A stretch of 59,256 nt of DNA, filler included. It is 7 parts of 7 records of this genome, joined end to end, with 100 filler letters (N's around TTAATTAATTAA, not from the genome) between each part and the next. Parts side by side here need not be neighbours in the genome. Positions count along the whole stretch, not along the records: positions 1 to 5,102 come from SRR31156797_35170; 6 more parts are not named here. One strand, written 5' to 3'. The translations under genes were made by a program, and so were the position numbers. The notes under the pieces were generated by a model. It saw only the letters and a list, made by a program, of their open reading frames with translations. It was not told the origin of the DNA and ran no database searches. Within the stretch, counting starts at the first letter, position 1, and the number at the start of each line of letters is the position of its first letter. Of this stretch, positions 1 through 52,766 are shown one piece after another.

Positions 1-1073
1 AGAAAATCGCCGACACCTATATGACGAGTCCGGTGACGATCACCGCAGGGCCGGCCAACAAAGCGGCAGAAAACATTTCCCACGACTGCTATGTTGTCAA
101 AGAAGAGAACCGGTATGCGGCCCTTAAACGGATGATTGATTTTCTTCCAGATATATTTGGTCTCGTTTTTTGCCGAACACGCCATGAAACGCAAAACGTG
201 GCCGATAAACTGATGAAAGACGGCTACAATGCGGAGGCGCTGCACGGTGACATGACGCAGATGCAAAGAAATCAGGTGATGATAAAATTCAGGCAGCGGA
301 CCCTCCAATTGCTGGTGGCCACCGATGTGGCCGCACGGGGTCTGGATGTGGATGATATCTCCCATGTCATCAATTACAACCTACCCGACGAACCGGAACG
401 GTATACCCATCGAAGCGGAAGAACCGCCCGTGCCGGCAAATCAGGCGTTTCCATTGTACTAATCAACAGTCGTGAGCTTCGGCGGATCAAAGCATTGGAA
501 TCTCAAAGCGGTATCCGGTTCAACCTCAAAAAGATTCCAAGTGGAAAAGCCGTTTGTGAAAAACAGCTGGTTGCGATGGTTGATCGACTGGTTTCCACAC
601 AGGTCAACGACAAAGAGATCGATTCTTTCCTTTCCCCGGTCCTCGAAACGCTTTCCGGCCTCAGCAAGGAAGAACTGATCCGCCGTTTCGTTTCAACGGA
701 ATTCAACCGTTTTCTGGATTACTATCGAGGGGCCGGAGACATCAATATCGATGTAAAAAAGAGAAAAGCCAAGGCGAATGGAAGCCAATATCGCAGCAGC
801 GGACCTACGCAGCGTTTTTTTATTAATGTGGGCCGTCTGGACAAGCTCAAGGAGGGCGCCATTGTCCGTCTGGTTTGCGACAACTCGGGTATTTCATCTA
901 AAAAACTCGGCCGCATTGAACTAAAAAGAGAGTTTTCATTTTTTGATGTCGACAAGCGTGTGGCAAATAAAGTTCTTAAATCCCTTAGGGGTGCAAAATT
1001 GGATGGCAGACAGATACGCGCTAAATTTGCCGAAAAAGATAGAAAAAGAGGCTGGGAAGGCGTAAATGCGTAA
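1..1073 (+). CDS. DEAD/DEAH-box RNA helicase, C-terminal part with DbpA-type RNA-binding domain (5' truncated at window edge)
   Basis: Helicase motifs IV-VI (LVFCRTR, LHGDM, VATDVAARGLD, YTHRSGRTARAG) plus a C-terminal RFFINVG...IGRIEL..FSFFDV-type domain. The frame is open to the window start. Confidence 0.93.
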   Translation, partial: KIADTYMTSPVTITAGPANKAAENISHDCYVVKEENRYAALKRMIDFLPDIFGLVFCRTRHETQNVADKLMKDGYNAEALHGDMTQMQRNQVMIKFRQRTLQLLVATDVAARGLDVDDISHVINYNLPDEPERYTHRSGRTARAGKSGVSIVLINSRELRRIKALESQSGIRFNLKKIPSGKAVCEKQLVAMVDRLVSTQVNDKEIDSFLSPVLETLSGLSKEELIRRFVSTEFNRFLDYYRGAGDINIDVKKRKAKANGSQYRSSGPTQRFFINVGRLDKLKEGAIVRLVCDNSGISSKKLGRIELKREFSFFDVDKRVANKVLKSLRGAKLDGRQIRAKFAEKDRKRGWEGVNA

Positions 1074-1202
1074 CCGAAAAGCCTTCAGGGGCAGATTTTC
1101 TCCCGCTTCCGCCTGCACCCTGCCCCAGGTACGATCACCGAGGATGCGGCGGCAAGTGGAGAATATTTTTTGATATGGATCGTTAGGGAACAATATCAGC
1201 AA
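1074..1202 (-). pseudogene. Possible 5' remnant of a selenobiotic-peptide radical SAM maturase (SbtM-like)
   Basis: KIFSTCRRILGDRTWGRV lies directly downstream of the Sec peptide and, from memory, resembles the SbtM N-terminus. After about 42 codons the frame runs into the antisense of the helicase, with no CxxxCxxC motif. Confidence 0.4.
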
Positions 1203-1208
1203 CTTCTG

Positions 1209-1225
1209 TCACGCGACCTGCGTGA
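1209..1225 (-). promoter_or_regulatory. Bacterial SECIS-like hairpin 3 (serves TGA at 1239-1241)
   Basis: Minus strand TCACGC-AGGTC-GCGTGA, a perfect 6-bp stem. The loop GGT starts 21 nt after the TGA. Confidence 0.75.
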
Positions 1226-1232
1226 AAAAAAG

Positions 1233-1454
1233 TCAGCCTCACCCGCTTTTTCCGGTCTTCTTTTTCTCATCGTCGGTGCCACCGGCACCGGAAGAATCGC
1301 CACTTCACCCGCTTGCGGAGCCACCGGCTCCAGCTTTATCGCCACTTCATGCACTTTTTCCGCTGGCGCAACTGCCGAGAGTAAAGGTGGAACCTGCGAT
1401 CAATCCGGCAATACAAAAACCTGCCAGGGCTTTTTTTAGGTCTTCTCCTGTCAT
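1233..1454 (-). CDS. Selenocysteine-containing small peptide, selenobiotic/SbtA-family RiPP precursor-like, 73 aa with 3 Sec
   Basis: RBS AAAGGAGG, then ATG at 1454. Translation with TGA=U: MTGEDLKKALAGFCIAGLIAGSTFTLGSCASGKSAUSGDKAGAGGSASGUSGDSSGAGGTDDEKKKTGKSGUG*. TGAs at 1347-1349, 1305-1307 and 1239-1241 are each followed by a SECIS-like hairpin. The leader DLKKxLAGxxIAGLxAG matches the family as I recall it. Confidence 0.85.
1275..1289 (-). promoter_or_regulatory. Bacterial SECIS-like hairpin 2 (serves TGA at 1305-1307)
   Basis: Minus strand GGTGCC-GGT-GGCACC, extendable by one C-G pair. The loop starts 22 nt after the TGA. Confidence 0.75.
1317..1331 (-). promoter_or_regulatory. Bacterial SECIS-like hairpin 1 (serves TGA at 1347-1349)
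   Basis: Minus strand GGAGCC-GGT-GGCTCC. The loop starts 22 nt after the TGA, with a compensatory A-T/T-A change relative to hairpin 2. Confidence 0.75.
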
Positions 1455-1877
1455 CGTTTCCTCCTTTCGAATGTAAAGGGCTCGATTGGCCGGTTTAAAA
1501 TCAGTCTCTTTCTACCCGGAACCAACCTAATTGATGACGACACTGACGCACTGCTTTCTTTCCAGCGAATGGCCGGAAATCCATGCCGCCCGTTTTACGG
1601 GCGGTCGTTGATCCCCCTGGGGCGGGAAGTTAATCATGCTTTAGAAAAAATTGACCCTGTATTAAAATTTTCGATCAGCGTCTTACAGCTGATTATAAAA
1701 ATCTATCAGGCCCTTCCTCTCCTGTCAATCGACGGTGGAAAGGAAGGTCCCCTGAATCGGTTTTAAAATTCAATGGATGAAAGAAGATGCCGATAAAGAT
1801 GTAAGGGAGATTGCAACCTGGTTTTCGGCACGTTGCCATTAGGAAGGTGAAGGATAAACCTGAGGAAATTTTGAGGA

Positions 1878-4442
1878 ATGAGTGAACCTTTGATCACAGA
1901 ATTTCTTGCCGGAAAGAGCAAGGAAATCAGAGATCTTGCCAGTAATGAAGCCGCCTTGGTTGGATTCTTGACCCTGATGAAAGGGGTTGACGATCTTCAA
2001 GGAATGGACCATCGATTCTATGAGGCAAAGCGTTGTCTGTACCAGGTTACCGCTGCAACCTATTCCATCGAAGCGCTGATAAAAATCCTTTCCGAGTTTT
2101 TCTGTGCTCCAGTTAAAGTCCCCGGCAAAGCGCTTCCCGTCAATTTTCGTTTTGATCAAACCGTAAAATTTCTAGGAGGTGTTCGAAAAGATCAGGCCCT
2201 TTTTCTAAAAAAACTTAAGACCGGATCATTTTTCGGAGCCCTGTGGCCATGGCAGCAAGATGGGAATAAAATCGAAATCCTGTTAGGCTATCACTCATCA
2301 ACGATGAATGCCTCGGATTACAGCGGTCTTAAGGCACTGGCGGAAAAATTTCTCAGTAGAAAGAAAATTGAATCCGTTTCCGGTGTCGGAGGGCAGATTC
2401 ACGGTATCAGCCTACCGTCCTTCTTACAAATGTCGGAAATGGAAGGGGCCACCTATACACTAAAGGTAAGCAGCGGGCCCCGCGTTGGATTTTTACACAT
2501 GGATGACGGGAACCTGATTGCTGCACAGCTCAACGAACAGACCGGAAACGAAGCCGCCAACCGGATCATCAGTTGGGATAACACGGCCATTCAGATTGAG
2601 CCTGCGGAACCTGGCCGGGTGAGGGAGATTCACGACTCTCTCATGCAAGTGATGATGGAATCCCTGAAACTTAAAGACGAATCCGAAGAGGAAACACCCC
2701 CTTGCGAATCGGATGCAGGCCCACTTTCATCCACCCCTCTTCTATTGTCGGATCTCCCCCCGACAGAGCAGAACATTCAAGAGGAAGATTCCAATAAGAA
2801 TTCGGTTCCGCCTCCTCCACCCGCCCCAGAAGCAAGCGATCCGCTTGAAAAACTGGAAGATCATTCCATCGCCAAGCAAAACAGAATGAGCAGAACGCAA
2901 AAGTTGCTGATTTTGCTGGGTTTGGTTATTCTTATCTCACTCATGGCAACCGGGGGCGGACAATGGTTGAAAAAAAGAGAGGCCTCTTTAAACTACGAAA
3001 AATTACAGGAAAACGTGGCTGGATCCGAAGCTTTGGATGAAAAAATCGTCTTACTGATGAAATACCTGAATGACCATCCCAAGGACGCCCATCGATCCAA
3101 ATTGGAGACTCGACTAATCGAGTTGAACAAAACCATTGAAATGTCGGACTACCAAAAGACGATGACCGATGTTGACAGCCTTCCCATTGACGAGAAATTT
3201 GAGAAGAGGGCCTTGTCCCTCTATACGGCTTTTTTAACGAAATACCCTAAAAGTGTCTATGCCGATCGCGTCAACGAAGCCATTGGCGGTATTGATCGGT
3301 TGGTGGGGACCGCCTACTTTGAAAGCCTCAAAAAGGTGTCCGCAACGGACTTTTTGGCCCGTTACAAAGCCTACCAGACTTACTTGGAACAGTTTCCCGA
3401 GAGCGAAGAGCGAGAGGCTGTTGAACAGATGATTTCCGACCTTGCAAACGAAACCGCATACGGAATCGAGCAGCAGATAGAAACTTGTAATAAAAAGCAG
3501 CAGTGGGCCCCCTGCATCGTCCGGTGCGACGAGTTTCTCTCCGCCTTTGACACTCCTTTGCCTACGGTTCAAAAAGTCATGCGGCTGCGCTCCGGGCTGC
3601 AAGATCGGAAAGACCTGGCAGAGTTGACGGCAAATGCGCGGCTTGCAACGGATGACCCCCAAAGGGCGCGTCAGATGTATAAGGACTATCTGATAAAACG
3701 GCCGGAAACATCAAAAAAGGAGGAGATCCTCCGCCGGATCGATCGGTTGACGGCCGACTTGGCTAAAAAAGAGATCTGGCTTTCAACCAAGGGATACGCT
3801 ACTGACACTGCGAACGACATCGTCAGCCGAATTCAGCGCCTGGAAAACTATCTAAATGATCCCGCCTCATCCCCTTATGAAGTGCAGGCAAGACAACTTA
3901 GAACACACCTTGAACCGGCGTTTCAGAAAGCAGTTTTCGATAAACGGGCCGAGGAGATCAAACGTGTGGTGGCGGCCCGGCAAAAGATGCAAGCTGAGAT
4001 CCAAAACAGAGAGATGCAGCGAATTCAACAGATCCGAAATCGGGTCCTCAGTACGCTGCAACCCTTGGGAAACAGGTATGCTGGACATCAAAACGGTACC
4101 GTCATCGATCAAGTGACAGGTTTAACCTGGTGTCTGTTGGACTCCTATCTGGTTTTCGATAAATGCATCTCTTATGACACGGCCAAAAACTATGTTCAGT
4201 CGCTGGATACCGGGGGCTACTCGGACTGGCGTCTTCCAACGGCAGGTGAACTTGCAACGATTTATAAAAACAGCCCTTCTTTCCCTGTTTCCGGGGCCCC
4301 CTGGTACTGGTCTTCGGAATCTTACGCCAGGGGATTTCATCGTGTTGTCGACGTTGTGACGCCAGACGAGGAATCCGAATTTAAAAGAATATCAAAACGC
4401 GAAGATCATTTGGGGGCCGTTCGTGCCGTGCGCCGGCAATAA
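1878..4442 (+). CDS. Membrane-anchored protein with DUF4388 (PATAN-like) domain, helical/coiled region and C-terminal DUF1566 (Lcl-type) domain
   Basis: GISLPSFLQMSEMEGATYTLKV...GNLIAA (DUF4388), a single TM segment LLILLGLVILISLMA, and NGTVIDQVTGLTWC...DWRLPTAGEL...YWSSE...VRAVR (DUF1566). Confidence 0.8.
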   Translation: MSEPLITEFLAGKSKEIRDLASNEAALVGFLTLMKGVDDLQGMDHRFYEAKRCLYQVTAATYSIEALIKILSEFFCAPVKVPGKALPVNFRFDQTVKFLGGVRKDQALFLKKLKTGSFFGALWPWQQDGNKIEILLGYHSSTMNASDYSGLKALAEKFLSRKKIESVSGVGGQIHGISLPSFLQMSEMEGATYTLKVSSGPRVGFLHMDDGNLIAAQLNEQTGNEAANRIISWDNTAIQIEPAEPGRVREIHDSLMQVMMESLKLKDESEEETPPCESDAGPLSSTPLLLSDLPPTEQNIQEEDSNKNSVPPPPPAPEASDPLEKLEDHSIAKQNRMSRTQKLLILLGLVILISLMATGGGQWLKKREASLNYEKLQENVAGSEALDEKIVLLMKYLNDHPKDAHRSKLETRLIELNKTIEMSDYQKTMTDVDSLPIDEKFEKRALSLYTAFLTKYPKSVYADRVNEAIGGIDRLVGTAYFESLKKVSATDFLARYKAYQTYLEQFPESEEREAVEQMISDLANETAYGIEQQIETCNKKQQWAPCIVRCDEFLSAFDTPLPTVQKVMRLRSGLQDRKDLAELTANARLATDDPQRARQMYKDYLIKRPETSKKEEILRRIDRLTADLAKKEIWLSTKGYATDTANDIVSRIQRLENYLNDPASSPYEVQARQLRTHLEPAFQKAVFDKRAEEIKRVVAARQKMQAEIQNREMQRIQQIRNRVLSTLQPLGNRYAGHQNGTVIDQVTGLTWCLLDSYLVFDKCISYDTAKNYVQSLDTGGYSDWRLPTAGELATIYKNSPSFPVSGAPWYWSSESYARGFHRVVDVVTPDEESEFKRISKREDHLGAVRAVRRQ

Positions 4443-4609
4443 AAAACCATTCATCCAAAAAAATGTATAATCGGGCAGTTGAAGCACAGGAAAATCGGTT
4501 CGATGAGGTTTACCACCATTTATTCATTGAAAAAAAATTCATTTGGGTTTATATCTGCAGCGTTTTTCAATATCCAAGACCTAAGAAAAAATTGAGGAGG
4601 GGGAAACGT

Positions 4610-5086
4610 ATGCGTAGCCTATCGTTAATCGGGGTGGTCTTGCTAATCGGTGTTATTACCTGTGCGACACTTGGAATCGCCATTGCCGAGGAAGAAGAGA
4701 TGTGTGTTCCCATGGGAATCATTACGCTGCAACCGCCAGCGTCGGTAGAAGCCAAGCGGGCTTCAGTAGCATTTGATCACAACCGCCATTTTGTTCTTGC
4801 CTGCAACGAATGTCATCATGCATGGGACGGCTCTCAGCCAGTCACCGGCTGTATGACGTCAGGGTGCCACGATCTTGAAGCCCTTCCTAGAAAAAAGGAT
4901 TCCAAAGCCGTCGACAAAGCGTTGGCCTATCGCTACTATAAAAATGCTTACCATGGACAATGCATCGGTTGTCATAAAAGCATGAAAGTAGAAATTGAAA
5001 AAGCGGCCAAGAGACTGGCCAGCATGGACAGCCCTGTAGGCACTACGGGTCCTACGGGATGTATCGAATGCCACCCGAAAGAGTAA
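4610..5086 (+). CDS. Class III tetraheme cytochrome c3
   Basis: RBS GAGGAGG, ATG at 4610 and a signal peptide. Four heme motifs CNECH, CMTSGCH, CIGCH and CIECH, plus VAFDH..H. Confidence 0.92.
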   Translation: MRSLSLIGVVLLIGVITCATLGIAIAEEEEMCVPMGIITLQPPASVEAKRASVAFDHNRHFVLACNECHHAWDGSQPVTGCMTSGCHDLEALPRKKDSKAVDKALAYRYYKNAYHGQCIGCHKSMKVEIEKAAKRLASMDSPVGTTGPTGCIECHPKE

Positions 5087-5102
5087 GGTCATTTTCACGG
5101 AT

Positions 5103-5202
5103 NNNNNNNNNNNNNNNNNNNNNNNNNNNNNNNNNNNNNNNNNNNNTTAATTAATTAANNNNNNNNNNNNNNNNNNNNNNNNNNNNNNNNNNNNNNNNNN
5201 NN
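5103..5202. other. Artificial contig spacer
   Basis: N runs flanking TTAATTAATTAA (stop codons in all six frames). Confidence 0.99.
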
Positions 5203-15680: not shown

Positions 15681-15780
15681 NNNNNNNNNNNNNNNNNNNN
15701 NNNNNNNNNNNNNNNNNNNNNNNNTTAATTAATTAANNNNNNNNNNNNNNNNNNNNNNNNNNNNNNNNNNNNNNNNNNNN
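15681..15780. other. Artificial contig spacer
   Basis: N runs plus TTAATTAATTAA. Confidence 0.99.
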
Positions 15781-21498: not shown

Positions 21499-21598
21499 NN
21501 NNNNNNNNNNNNNNNNNNNNNNNNNNNNNNNNNNNNNNNNNNTTAATTAATTAANNNNNNNNNNNNNNNNNNNNNNNNNNNNNNNNNNNNNNNNNNNN
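21499..21598. other. Artificial contig spacer
   Basis: N runs plus TTAATTAATTAA. Confidence 0.99.
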
Positions 21599-33434: not shown

Positions 33435-33534
33435 NNNNNNNNNNNNNNNNNNNNNNNNNNNNNNNNNNNNNNNNNNNNTTAATTAATTAANNNNNNNNNN
33501 NNNNNNNNNNNNNNNNNNNNNNNNNNNNNNNNNN
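33435..33534. other. Artificial contig spacer
   Basis: N runs plus TTAATTAATTAA. Confidence 0.99.
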
Positions 33535-39065: not shown

Positions 39066-39165
39066 NNNNNNNNNNNNNNNNNNNNNNNNNNNNNNNNNNN
39101 NNNNNNNNNTTAATTAATTAANNNNNNNNNNNNNNNNNNNNNNNNNNNNNNNNNNNNNNNNNNNN
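39066..39165. other. Artificial contig spacer
   Basis: N runs plus TTAATTAATTAA. Confidence 0.99.
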
Positions 39166-48786: not shown

Positions 48787-49749
48787 ATGTCCCATGTTTA
48801 CGGGCCAGTGCCGTCGCGCCGCCTGGGCCGTTCTTTGGGAGTCGACCTTGTTCCGTTCAAGGCCTGTCCCTACGACTGCATCTACTGCCAACTTGGCAGG
48901 ACCACCGACCTAACGCTGGACCGCCACAACTGGTTTCCGCTCGAAGACGTCGTCGACGACCTGAAGGACCGGATCGACCTCAAACCCGATTACATTACCC
49001 TTGGCGGGTCGGGCGAACCGACCCTTTATGCCCGCATCGGCGATCTGATCGATTCCATCCAAACCATGACCGATATCCCTATCGTGGTTCTGACCAACGG
49101 CGCCCTGCTGTGGCAGCCCGAGGTTCGTCGGCAACTGCGACAGGCCGCCATGGTCATCCCTTCTCTCGATGCCGGCGATGCCGACATGTTCCGGGCCGTC
49201 AACCGTCCCCATAAAAGCCTGGAATTCGAACAGGTCCTTGAAGGTCTGATCACCTTCCGCGAGGAGTACTGGGGCCAATATTGGTTGGAGGTTATGCTCC
49301 TCCAGAATTACACGGCGGCCGAATCCCAGGTCCGCAGGATCGCCGCCTGTACGGAACGCATCAGACCCAACAGGGTACAGATCAATACGGCAACCCGACC
49401 GACCGCCGAAGCCTTCGCCGAAGCCATCGATCCGGCCCACCTTCAGCGAATCGTCCGGTTGTTCCCCGGCAAGGCCGAGGTTATCGGCCGGCATGCATCG
49501 ACCGGGATCAAGTCGTCCCTTCACGACGGCGGCACCGCCATTCTCGATCTGTTGCGCCGGCGCCCCTGTACCGTCGACGATATCGCCACAGCCCTTCAAT
49601 CGCATCGCCTGGAAATCCTCAAATACCTGGACGAGCTGCTTCGAAAACGCCTGATCGAACGTCGGCGGGCCGGCAATCGGGTGTTTTTTTGCGCCTCCTG
49701 GCGATCGTCATCCGACCGGCAAGGAACGGCGGCAAAAAGCGAGGTCTGA
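48787..49749 (+). CDS. Radical SAM Fe-S oxidoreductase (COG0731-like) with C-terminal HTH
   Basis: YGPVPSRRLGRSLGVD, CPYDCIYC, GSGEPTL and LLRRRPCTVDDIA. Confidence 0.9.
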   Translation: MSHVYGPVPSRRLGRSLGVDLVPFKACPYDCIYCQLGRTTDLTLDRHNWFPLEDVVDDLKDRIDLKPDYITLGGSGEPTLYARIGDLIDSIQTMTDIPIVVLTNGALLWQPEVRRQLRQAAMVIPSLDAGDADMFRAVNRPHKSLEFEQVLEGLITFREEYWGQYWLEVMLLQNYTAAESQVRRIAACTERIRPNRVQINTATRPTAEAFAEAIDPAHLQRIVRLFPGKAEVIGRHASTGIKSSLHDGGTAILDLLRRRPCTVDDIATALQSHRLEILKYLDELLRKRLIERRRAGNRVFFCASWRSSSDRQGTAAKSEV

Positions 49750-52666: not shown

Positions 52667-52766
52667 NNNNNNNNNNNNNNNNNNNNNNNNNNNNNNNNNN
52701 NNNNNNNNNNTTAATTAATTAANNNNNNNNNNNNNNNNNNNNNNNNNNNNNNNNNNNNNNNNNNNN
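52667..52766. other. Artificial contig spacer
   Basis: N runs plus TTAATTAATTAA. Confidence 0.99.

Follow-up and report, generated by a model that had tools for sequence, protein, structure and literature searches.

A putative sbtA gene with three UGA codons, each followed by a SECIS-like hairpin, beside a truncated sbtM gene

The sbtA locus

The DNA analysed here (the window) is a stretch of 59,256 nucleotides in which seven contigs are joined by six N44-TTAATTAATTAA-N44 linkers that carry stops in six frames. On the minus strand of the first contig it contains a short gene that is assigned to sbtA and would encode a precursor of the SbtA/SbtM type of thio(seleno)oxazole ribosomally synthesised and post-translationally modified peptide (RiPP). 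Three in-frame UGA codons of this gene are probably recoded as selenocysteine (Sec), each by means of its own hairpin resembling a selenocysteine insertion sequence (SECIS) element. The real genomic context of the gene is limited to positions 1-5102, where the remnant of an sbtM gene lies downstream of sbtA. All features are listed in Table 1.

Translation with TGA read as Sec (U) yields MTGEDLKKALAGFCIAGLIAGSTFTLGSCASGKSA-U-SGDKAGAGGSASG-U-SGDSSGAGGTDDEKKKTGKSG-U-G, which starts with MTGEDLKK and is followed by a further TGA at codon 74 (1235-1233). A preliminary description of this DNA had proposed a minus-strand frame opened by a ribosome-binding site and the ATG at 1454, with TGAs at codons 36, 50 and 72 in the contexts KSA-U-SGD, ASG-U-SGD and KSG-U-G, and both the frame and the three contexts were recovered. 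The predicted product consists of a 28-residue hydrophobic leader and a Gly/Ser-rich core, in which the UGA contexts follow the pattern [SA]-[AG]-U-[SG]-G. Repeat units 1 and 2 form a 42-nt direct repeat of 76% identity. The ribosome-binding site, the ATG, the three TGAs, three perfect stems and the stop are all intact, and GGAGG likewise precedes the start codon in related loci.

Assignment to the SbtA family

The peptide, with C in place of U, was searched against the NCBIfam model TIGR04081 ('SbtA family thio(seleno)oxazole RiPP natural product precursor'). It scored 40.7 bits against a cut-off of 30.5 (E-value 1.4e-10), and the match placed leader residues 3-26 on positions 3-26 of the 27 in the profile. 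The family and the model number had been named in the preliminary description, and both proved correct when the profile search proposed there put the peptide over the curated threshold. In a local copy of Pfam the peptide matched nothing. A large protein collection held 19 homologues, all tagged PF27804, several of which carry the JGI name 'radical SAM modification target selenobiotic family peptide', and the leader columns are invariant or nearly so across homologues. Judged by the profile match, the window gene is a further member of the already known SbtA family.

Most of the database entries are short. Thirteen of the 19 homologues stop at the first TGA (...GKSA, ...GKSG or ...GASA), as had been anticipated for standard annotation, so that the core and the Sec count of the family are under-reported. 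In three others, with Q, G or S at site 36, the call reaches the second TGA; another extends to the third TGA with P at site 36 and G at site 50, and P0002 was called with W at all four TGAs. The sense residues in P0003-P0006 are known from protein entries only and represent either real losses of single Sec sites or unusual gene calls; by their presence, Sec at a given site may be dispensable. In a class-wide survey 34 of 401 sampled genomes gave a match, every one with at least one in-frame TGA. This survey was not used for Sec counts, since many of its alignments stop short of the third TGA, at residue 71, and too few internal stops are counted as a result.

Conservation of the UGA codons in related loci

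Fifty related loci were compared, 16 from reference genomes and 34 from metagenomes. The window's own contig was not included, and the best identity was 83%. Sources of the genome loci are Desulfosarcina species (among them D. alkanivorans PL12, L005, whose genome is complete), other Desulfobacteraceae, metagenome-assembled genomes (MAGs) of a Desulfococcaceae and a Syntrophaceae member, and an Olavius symbiont. The first core TGA is present in all 50 loci. Among the 47 loci that are complete at the 3' end, 42 carry three core TGAs and five carry two (L032, L046-L048 and L053). L032 is without the middle repeat unit, and L046-L048 and L053 close with TAA after the second unit. The number of putative Sec-bearing units is evolutionarily plastic.

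Several properties of the alignment point to translation beyond the TGAs. Mean sequence entropy after TGA36 and TGA50 in the proposed frame is 0.98 and 1.00 at codon position 3 as against 0.16 and 0.43 at position 2, and the frame survives insertions and deletions across the 50 loci. The most distant loci run past the third TGA for 3-5 codons to a TAG (U-SGTKK-TAG in L015, U-GGS-TAG-TAA in L016). TGA closes 27 of 70 long open reading frames (ORFs) in L001-L008 and is therefore an ordinary stop in this lineage. A search of five relative genomes for selB and tRNA-Sec found selB above the cut-off in all five and tRNA-Sec above the gathering score in three.

A further TGA position was found at codon 29, which is mostly Cys and, in the manner of a classic Cys/Sec pair, is TGA in nine loci (L011, L032, L042, L043, L051, L054-L056 and L058). 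These loci would have four Sec codons in about 72 codons, or three in the case of L032, which lacks one core unit. The clade to which they belong includes the MAG of the Olavius symbiont, and its member L037 keeps Cys29, a residue of the lipobox-like LSxC that is otherwise invariant. A two-tier stem-loop is predicted after TGA29, with TGA36 in its loop, and reached a folding-energy z of about -3.5 in three of the five TGA29 loci that were folded. The same type of stem-loop is predicted in the Cys29 relative L037, and variation is too small for a covariation test. As an alternative account of this clade, Cys29 could be a fourth site of SbtM action.

Three loci deserve separate mention. The loci L012 and L013 are near-identical sbtA-sbtM pairs 1.7 Mb apart on one contig of the 12.5-Mb assembly G002, which reflects either a true duplication or a mixed assembly. 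On a 1.1-kb metagenome contig (L052:715-750) the three-Sec core is normal and the N-terminus of the leader is replaced by unrelated sequence, so that this contig is maybe chimeric or rearranged.

SECIS-like hairpins

Bacterial SECIS elements are stem-loops that begin about 11-20 nt 3' of the UGA and present a G and a U in the apical loop at a fixed distance from it. The spacing and the loop G/U of all three window hairpins agree with this description. Counted from the T of each TGA as +1, the stems of hairpins 1, 2 and 3 start at +19, +18/19 and +17, and the loop GGU lies at +25-27, +25-27 and +24-26; the spacing is shared by the relatives. The preliminary description had placed one hairpin with a GGT-containing loop on a perfect stem behind each TGA, an arrangement that is borne out here with stems of 6-7 bp.

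Folding-energy z scores of the window sequence relative to shuffles were -0.34, -1.79 and -2.41 for hairpins 1, 2 and 3. Single-sequence folding energies are thus indecisive, and the case for the hairpins rests on the comparison with relatives. For this comparison distinct sequences were anchored on each TGA (41, 40 and 39 rows, respectively) and pairs were counted for the window stems. At hairpin 1, 84.0% of the cells are paired and changes on both sides occur in five of eight pairs; pairing scores are lowest at the two outer pairs and at the pair that closes the loop. Hairpin 2 has 98.6% of cells paired and both-side changes in five of seven pairs, and hairpin 3 has 99.6% paired and both-side changes in five of six pairs (34 cells). 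None of 500 shuffles reached the observed score at any of the three hairpins, and sliding the 3' partner by 1-3 columns as a control left 5-68% of cells paired. Examples of compensated stems are GGAACC/GGTTCC (L004), GGATGC/GCATCC (L015) and CGACGC/GCGTCG (L016) at hairpin 1, and CCACGC/GCGTGG, GCCTGC/GCAGGC, TGCGCGC/GCGCGCA and TAGTGC/GCACTA at hairpin 3. The compensation in L004 changes Ala to Thr, so that the constraint on the RNA is more than an echo of the protein. By this covariation all three predicted hairpins are selected as RNA, and the proposal of three Sec codons with one hairpin each, made for the window copy, extends to its relatives, where both are conserved and the hairpins covary.

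The inferred terminating UGA

The TGA at codon 74 behaves differently from the three upstream of it. Forty of the 47 complete loci end in U-x-TGA, L031 has TAA exactly at the codon of this fourth TGA, and in five loci TAA or TAG follows it immediately. Beyond it the reading frame differs between loci, and hairpin 3 is conserved as DNA. Measured from the T of the third TGA, this hairpin begins at a distance of 16-17 nt, a spacing shared with hairpins 1 and 2, and it follows the fourth TGA by only about 10 nt. From these comparisons we infer that the TGA two codons past the third Sec codon is the stop and that the product has 73 residues ending in KSG-U-G. The UGA that would end translation falls within the spacer ahead of hairpin 3, 6 nt after the putatively recoded UGA.

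The sbtM remnant

Downstream of sbtA a frame encodes PNDPYQKIFSTCRRILGDRTWGRVQAEAGENLPLKAF, which aligns by BLASTP with residues 5-41 of D. alkanivorans SbtM (21 of 37 identical, E-value 2e-12). The likeness to six SbtM N-termini is lost after about position 1077, and the TAA of the convergent helicase gene (1071-1073) lies 3 nt from the end of the remnant. Nothing else resembling SbtM was found in 1-5102, and an adjacent intact sbtM (TIGR04082) is absent on this contig. The SbtM maturase to which the preliminary description referred is not intact at this locus, which keeps the N-terminal stub alone. In the relatives SbtM is encoded directly after sbtA in five of five genomes (689-709 bits with TIGR04082, cut-off 350), and by tblastn sbtM starts on the strand of sbtA, no more than 1 kb downstream of it, in 44 of the 50 loci; in the remaining six the sequence beyond sbtA extends for 182 nt at most. 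The special feature of the window copy is its lost maturase. With sbtM cut to about 37 codons, the peptide may be matured by a copy elsewhere, may stay unmodified or may belong to a recently orphaned gene.

The probable source run also contains a 17,186-nt contig, made by a different assembler, that spans 500-2000 with 0 differences and an even depth of 23, so the junction of helicase gene and remnant is present in the reads. At least two further, diverged sbtA-sbtM loci were seen in the same run, on contigs that align with positions 1109-1363; in these loci sbtM continues normally and the spacer is 151-187 letters long compared with 103-136. Several SbtA-bearing strains coexist in the probable source sample.

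Neighbouring genes and sequence context

The 854-aa gene and the c3-type cytochrome gene are found in the same divergent arrangement in L001-L008 (Desulfosarcina-type) and not in L009-L016 among the 16 genome loci, which leaves clade inheritance, not function, as a possible reason for this synteny. A weak promoter-like site was located about 245 nt upstream of the sbtA ATG, and a scan for terminators around sbtA found none. Positions 1261-1614 are matched by contigs of two marine metatranscriptome libraries that belong to a single study, where carry-over of DNA is possible. Identity to the window is 98-99% for two of these contigs, one spanning 1320-1614 with 6 differences and the other 1341-1500 with 2; the longer one, from a near-identical relative, extends to 1614, as compared with the promoter-like site at 1700-1728. 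The sbtA core and the start of sbtM are linked by another contig, whose source is a less similar relative. The lack of RNA-contig cover on the helicase gene and the 854-aa gene is not evidence that they are silent, and runs that hold small shares are uninformative as to habitat.

GC content ranges from 0.41 to 0.62 across the seven joined contigs, which suggests a mixed bin as their source. Rhamnosidase and aceric acid hydrolase genes are located on the last segment. A radical S-adenosylmethionine (SAM) ORF at 48787-49749 was considered as sbtA context and set aside, as it encodes a generic 320-aa protein on a different contig. The stretch was also searched for ORF pairs joined across a TGA as further selenoprotein genes, and the two best candidates were plain neighbouring genes: a cysteine-desulfurase-like gene beside an ABC ATPase gene, and an unnamed ORF beside a DapA-like gene.

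Table 1. Features of the sbtA contig and linkers of the window
Feature	Position	Strand	Evidence
sbtA coding sequence (putative), 73 codons, Sec at 36, 50 and 72	1233..1454	-	frame with TGA=U; TIGR04081; layout common to 50 related loci
Shine-Dalgarno sequence AAAGGAGG, 5 nt before ATG 1454-1452	1460..1467	-	sequence
Conserved leader, codons 1-28, ending in lipobox-like L-G-S-C; Cys29 at 1370-1368	1368..1454	-	HMM match, alignment
Putative Sec codon 36, KSA-U-SGD	1347..1349	-	TGA in 50/50 loci
Putative Sec codon 50, ASG-U-SGD	1305..1307	-	TGA in 47 loci
Putative Sec codon 72, KSG-U-G	1239..1241	-	TGA in 43 loci
SECIS-like hairpin 1, GGAGCC-GGU-GGCUCC	1317..1331 (stem 1331-1326/1322-1317)	-	inverted repeat, folding, covariation
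SECIS-like hairpin 2, CGGUGCC-GGU-GGCACCG	1274..1290 (stem 1290-1284/1280-1274)	-	inverted repeat, folding, covariation
SECIS-like hairpin 3, UCACGC-AGGUC-GCGUGA, beyond stop codon	1209..1225 (stem 1225-1220/1214-1209)	-	inverted repeat, folding, covariation
sbtM remnant, first ~37 conserved codons (PNDPYQKIFSTCRRILGDRTWGRV...LKAF)	1077..1187	-	BLASTP, alignment
Promoter-like site TTGACA-17-TAGATT, TG before -10	1700..1728	-	consensus scan
DbpA-type DEAD-box RNA helicase gene, 3' part, convergent to sbtA	3..1073	+	Pfam Helicase_C and DbpA; NCBIfam
Divergent neighbour, 854-aa protein with DUF4388 and Lcl_C (DUF1566) domains	1878..4442	+	Pfam
Class III (c3-type) multihaem cytochrome c	4463..5086	+	Pfam
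Artificial linkers (the first ends the sbtA contig)	5103-5202, 15681-15780, 21499-21598, 33435-33534, 39066-39165, 52667-52766	.	sequence

Discussion

The reading preferred here, to which we assign a probability of roughly 0.88, is that 1454-1233 is an sbtA gene in which three UGAs are recoded as Sec through hairpins of their own. SelB carrying Sec-tRNA(Sec) would bind each hairpin in turn and direct the insertion of Sec at the corresponding UGA. Translation would end two codons beyond the third Sec codon, at a UGA that is about 6 nt too close to hairpin 3 to be recoded. In the relatives the next gene downstream encodes SbtM, a radical SAM/SPASM enzyme that, according to published biochemistry, converts X-Sec/Cys into 5-seleno/thio-oxazole.

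The proposed elements can be compared with the fdhF mRNA of E. coli, where the SECIS hairpin lies shortly 3' of the UGA within the coding region, with an exposed G and U in its apical loop some 22-26 nt away from that codon. The sbtA hairpins likewise lie shortly 3' of their UGAs with G and U exposed in the loop, and the AGGUC loop of hairpin 3 presumably resembles that of fdhF. Unlike fdhF, sbtA has three elements within 130 nt, two of them with 3-nt loops, and the third lies beyond the stop codon, also a UGA, which stands between the last Sec codon and hairpin 3. With other bacterial mRNAs that contain several recoded UGAs, sbtA would share the recoding of more than one UGA per mRNA. For the most part the known products of such mRNAs are enzymes or fusion proteins with lengths of hundreds of residues, whereas SbtA would have 3 Sec in 73 residues in the window copy and 4 in 72 in the TGA29 clade.

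A number of observations weigh against three functional Sec codons in the window copy. No Cys is found at sites 36, 50 or 72 in the 50 loci or the 19 database proteins, so that the homologues with Cys aligned to the core TGAs that had been looked for did not appear and the sole Cys/Sec pair is at position 29. At site 36 the residue is P, Q, G or S in P0003-P0006, one of which also has G at site 50. The hairpins are small (6-7 bp), two have loops of 3 nt, and hairpin 1 of the window folds no better than its shuffles. Hairpins 1 and 2 also encode G-A-G-G-S/T, and their conservation could be partly at the level of the protein. A scan of 1-3000 with Rfam at E-values up to 10 returned no SECIS or other meaningful family, a result that weighs little because Rfam has few bacterial SECIS models. 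The truncation of sbtM finally means that the window copy may be decaying.

Should the TGAs be ordinary stops, the gene would encode a 35-residue leader peptide, and the repeats and hairpins downstream would act on sbtM as regulatory RNA, such as an attenuator. Attenuators typically have hairpins that separate a short ORF from the next gene, most of the database gene calls stop at the first TGA, and no SECIS family was matched, nor was a terminator detected. The hairpins have no U-runs behind them, however, and the sequence after the TGAs varies with period three in the proposed frame, which is kept through insertions and deletions and is closed by TAG or TAA after the third TGA. Some homologues also read on in frame with sense codons at site 36 or 50, position 29 shows the Cys/TGA pair, and the family is treated as Sec peptides in the available portions of PMC9204691. 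This explanation is considered very improbable. Slightly less probable still is that the UGAs are read through without Sec, by a reassigned code or a near-cognate tRNA inserting Trp, Cys or Gly. P0002, called with W at its four TGAs, and the homologues with G or S at site 36 would fit such a reading. It is opposed by the share of long ORFs that TGA ends in the closest genomes (27 of 70), by the stop of sbtA itself, which is a TGA 6 nt after a TGA that would be read through, by the selB and tRNA-Sec genes of the relatives, and by a covarying hairpin that stands at fixed spacing behind the read-through TGAs only, and behind each one.

Two further explanations concern the window copy rather than the recoding. 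The contig 1-5102 may be chimeric at about 1075, in which case the truncation of sbtM would be an assembly artefact and the organism would have the usual sbtA-sbtM pair. Only 3 nt separate the junction from the end of a gene, GC content is uneven within the bin, and the related contigs of the same sample with a continuing sbtM keep a chimera under consideration. Against it stands the contig of the second assembler, which crosses the junction but derives from the same reads and is not independent DNA, and we regard an artefact as unlikely. Somewhat less unlikely, though still doubtful, is that the window sbtA is a relic that fell into disuse after the loss of sbtM and has not yet accumulated damage. 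Its sbtM is down to about 37 codons, the N-terminus of its peptide is the most divergent in the clade (MTGED..KKA compared with a consensus of MDVDD..KKI), and its lipobox LGSC occurs just once among 42 distinct N-termini. The intact signals, codons and stems of the gene argue against decay, and the RNA-library contig 98-99% identical over 1320-1614 gives a hint, and no more, in the same direction.

With respect to the known SbtA/SbtM system, the window gene agrees in passing the curated leader model, in an SG-U-G-type motif with a 3' hairpin, in its Desulfobacteria lineage and in sbtM as the next gene in relatives. In its available portions, PMC9204691 limits the SbtA/SbtM pair to Geobacter and 'Desulfbacteria', places Sec in a GGUG motif, credits the family with 'at least two SeCys' and reports, for a minimal peptide, that SbtM removes 4 H to give a thio(seleno)oxazole at Gly-Cys/Sec. 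A table row in the accessible part of a 2026 review reads 'Selenobacteriocin, TIGR04081, SGUG, 2 [Sec]' (PMC13188914), and the system is also covered in PMC11002830, as far as that text was available. The window gene differs in its three Sec codons, where these sources print 'at least two' and '2', in its first site, which is KSA-U and not G-U, and in the truncation of sbtM on its contig. Relative to the counts in these excerpts, three Sec are an increment. Literature searches on the family names and on multiple Sec turned up no paper in which SbtA has three Sec codons and a SECIS element for each; such a description may exist in Haft & Basu 2011 or in Lewis et al. 2021. The preliminary description had called the Sec density very unusual, which stands for bacteria in general and not within the SbtA family, for which multiple Sec are already in print in the excerpts cited. 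The putative layout of three Sec codons and three hairpins is typical of its clade and under-described in the accessible literature.

The leader may hold information on the fate of the product. A lipobox has the form [LVI][ASTVI][GAS]C after a hydrophobic stretch, with the Cys at residue 15-35 and Lys/Arg in the n-region. Across the family the leader closes with a lipobox-like L-[SGN]-[GSA]-C (residues 26-29), and 34 of 42 distinct N-termini fit the strict pattern when U is counted as C. The LGSC of the window fits only the looser, PROSITE-like pattern, and its n-region has KK but a net negative charge. No transporter- or protease-like gene flanks sbtA-sbtM in D. alkanivorans. The combination of a lipobox-like leader with no dedicated exporter suggests export of SbtA by the general pathway and perhaps lipid anchoring.

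A similar heterocycle occurs in other peptides. In the available portions of two papers (10.1101/2025.11.18.689057, PMC12538549), bufferins or 'captophorins' are described as 5-thiooxazole copper-binding RiPPs that are made by MNIO enzymes, carry N-terminal signal peptides and are sent to the periplasm, and both papers group 'modified SbtMa' with the 5-thiooxazoles by its absorbance at about 305 nm. Bufferins share with SbtA the heterocycle type of the SbtM product and several modified Cys per peptide; they differ, in the same portions, by an oxygen-dependent MNIO in place of a radical SAM enzyme, by sulphur in place of selenium and by having no lipobox. By analogy, a metal-binding role of SbtA products in the envelope is a reasonable guess. 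A more far-reaching proposal is that SbtA peptides are not secreted 'selenobiotics' but are exported by the Sec protein-export pathway and anchored by their lipobox in the envelope, with 3-4 selenooxazole/selenol groups, as an anaerobic, radical-SAM, selenium version of the bufferin class. The Cys for lipid attachment would then be Sec in one symbiont-related clade, and the window copy would be a plain tri-selenol lipopeptide. This proposal is speculative and, on balance, rather improbable. If true, the window copy would offer a natural test of the contribution made by the heterocycles.

With 3 or 4 UGAs in about 73 codons and a minimal hairpin for each, the SbtA family would have among the densest runs of recoded UGAs in bacteria. 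The UGA stop 6 nt past a recoded UGA may offer a compact natural system for the spacing by which SelB separates 'Sec' from 'stop', and three hairpins in one gene may serve as a system for how SECIS elements work in tandem. The copy without its maturase and the lipobox-like leader provide testable leads on the role of the SbtA natural product.

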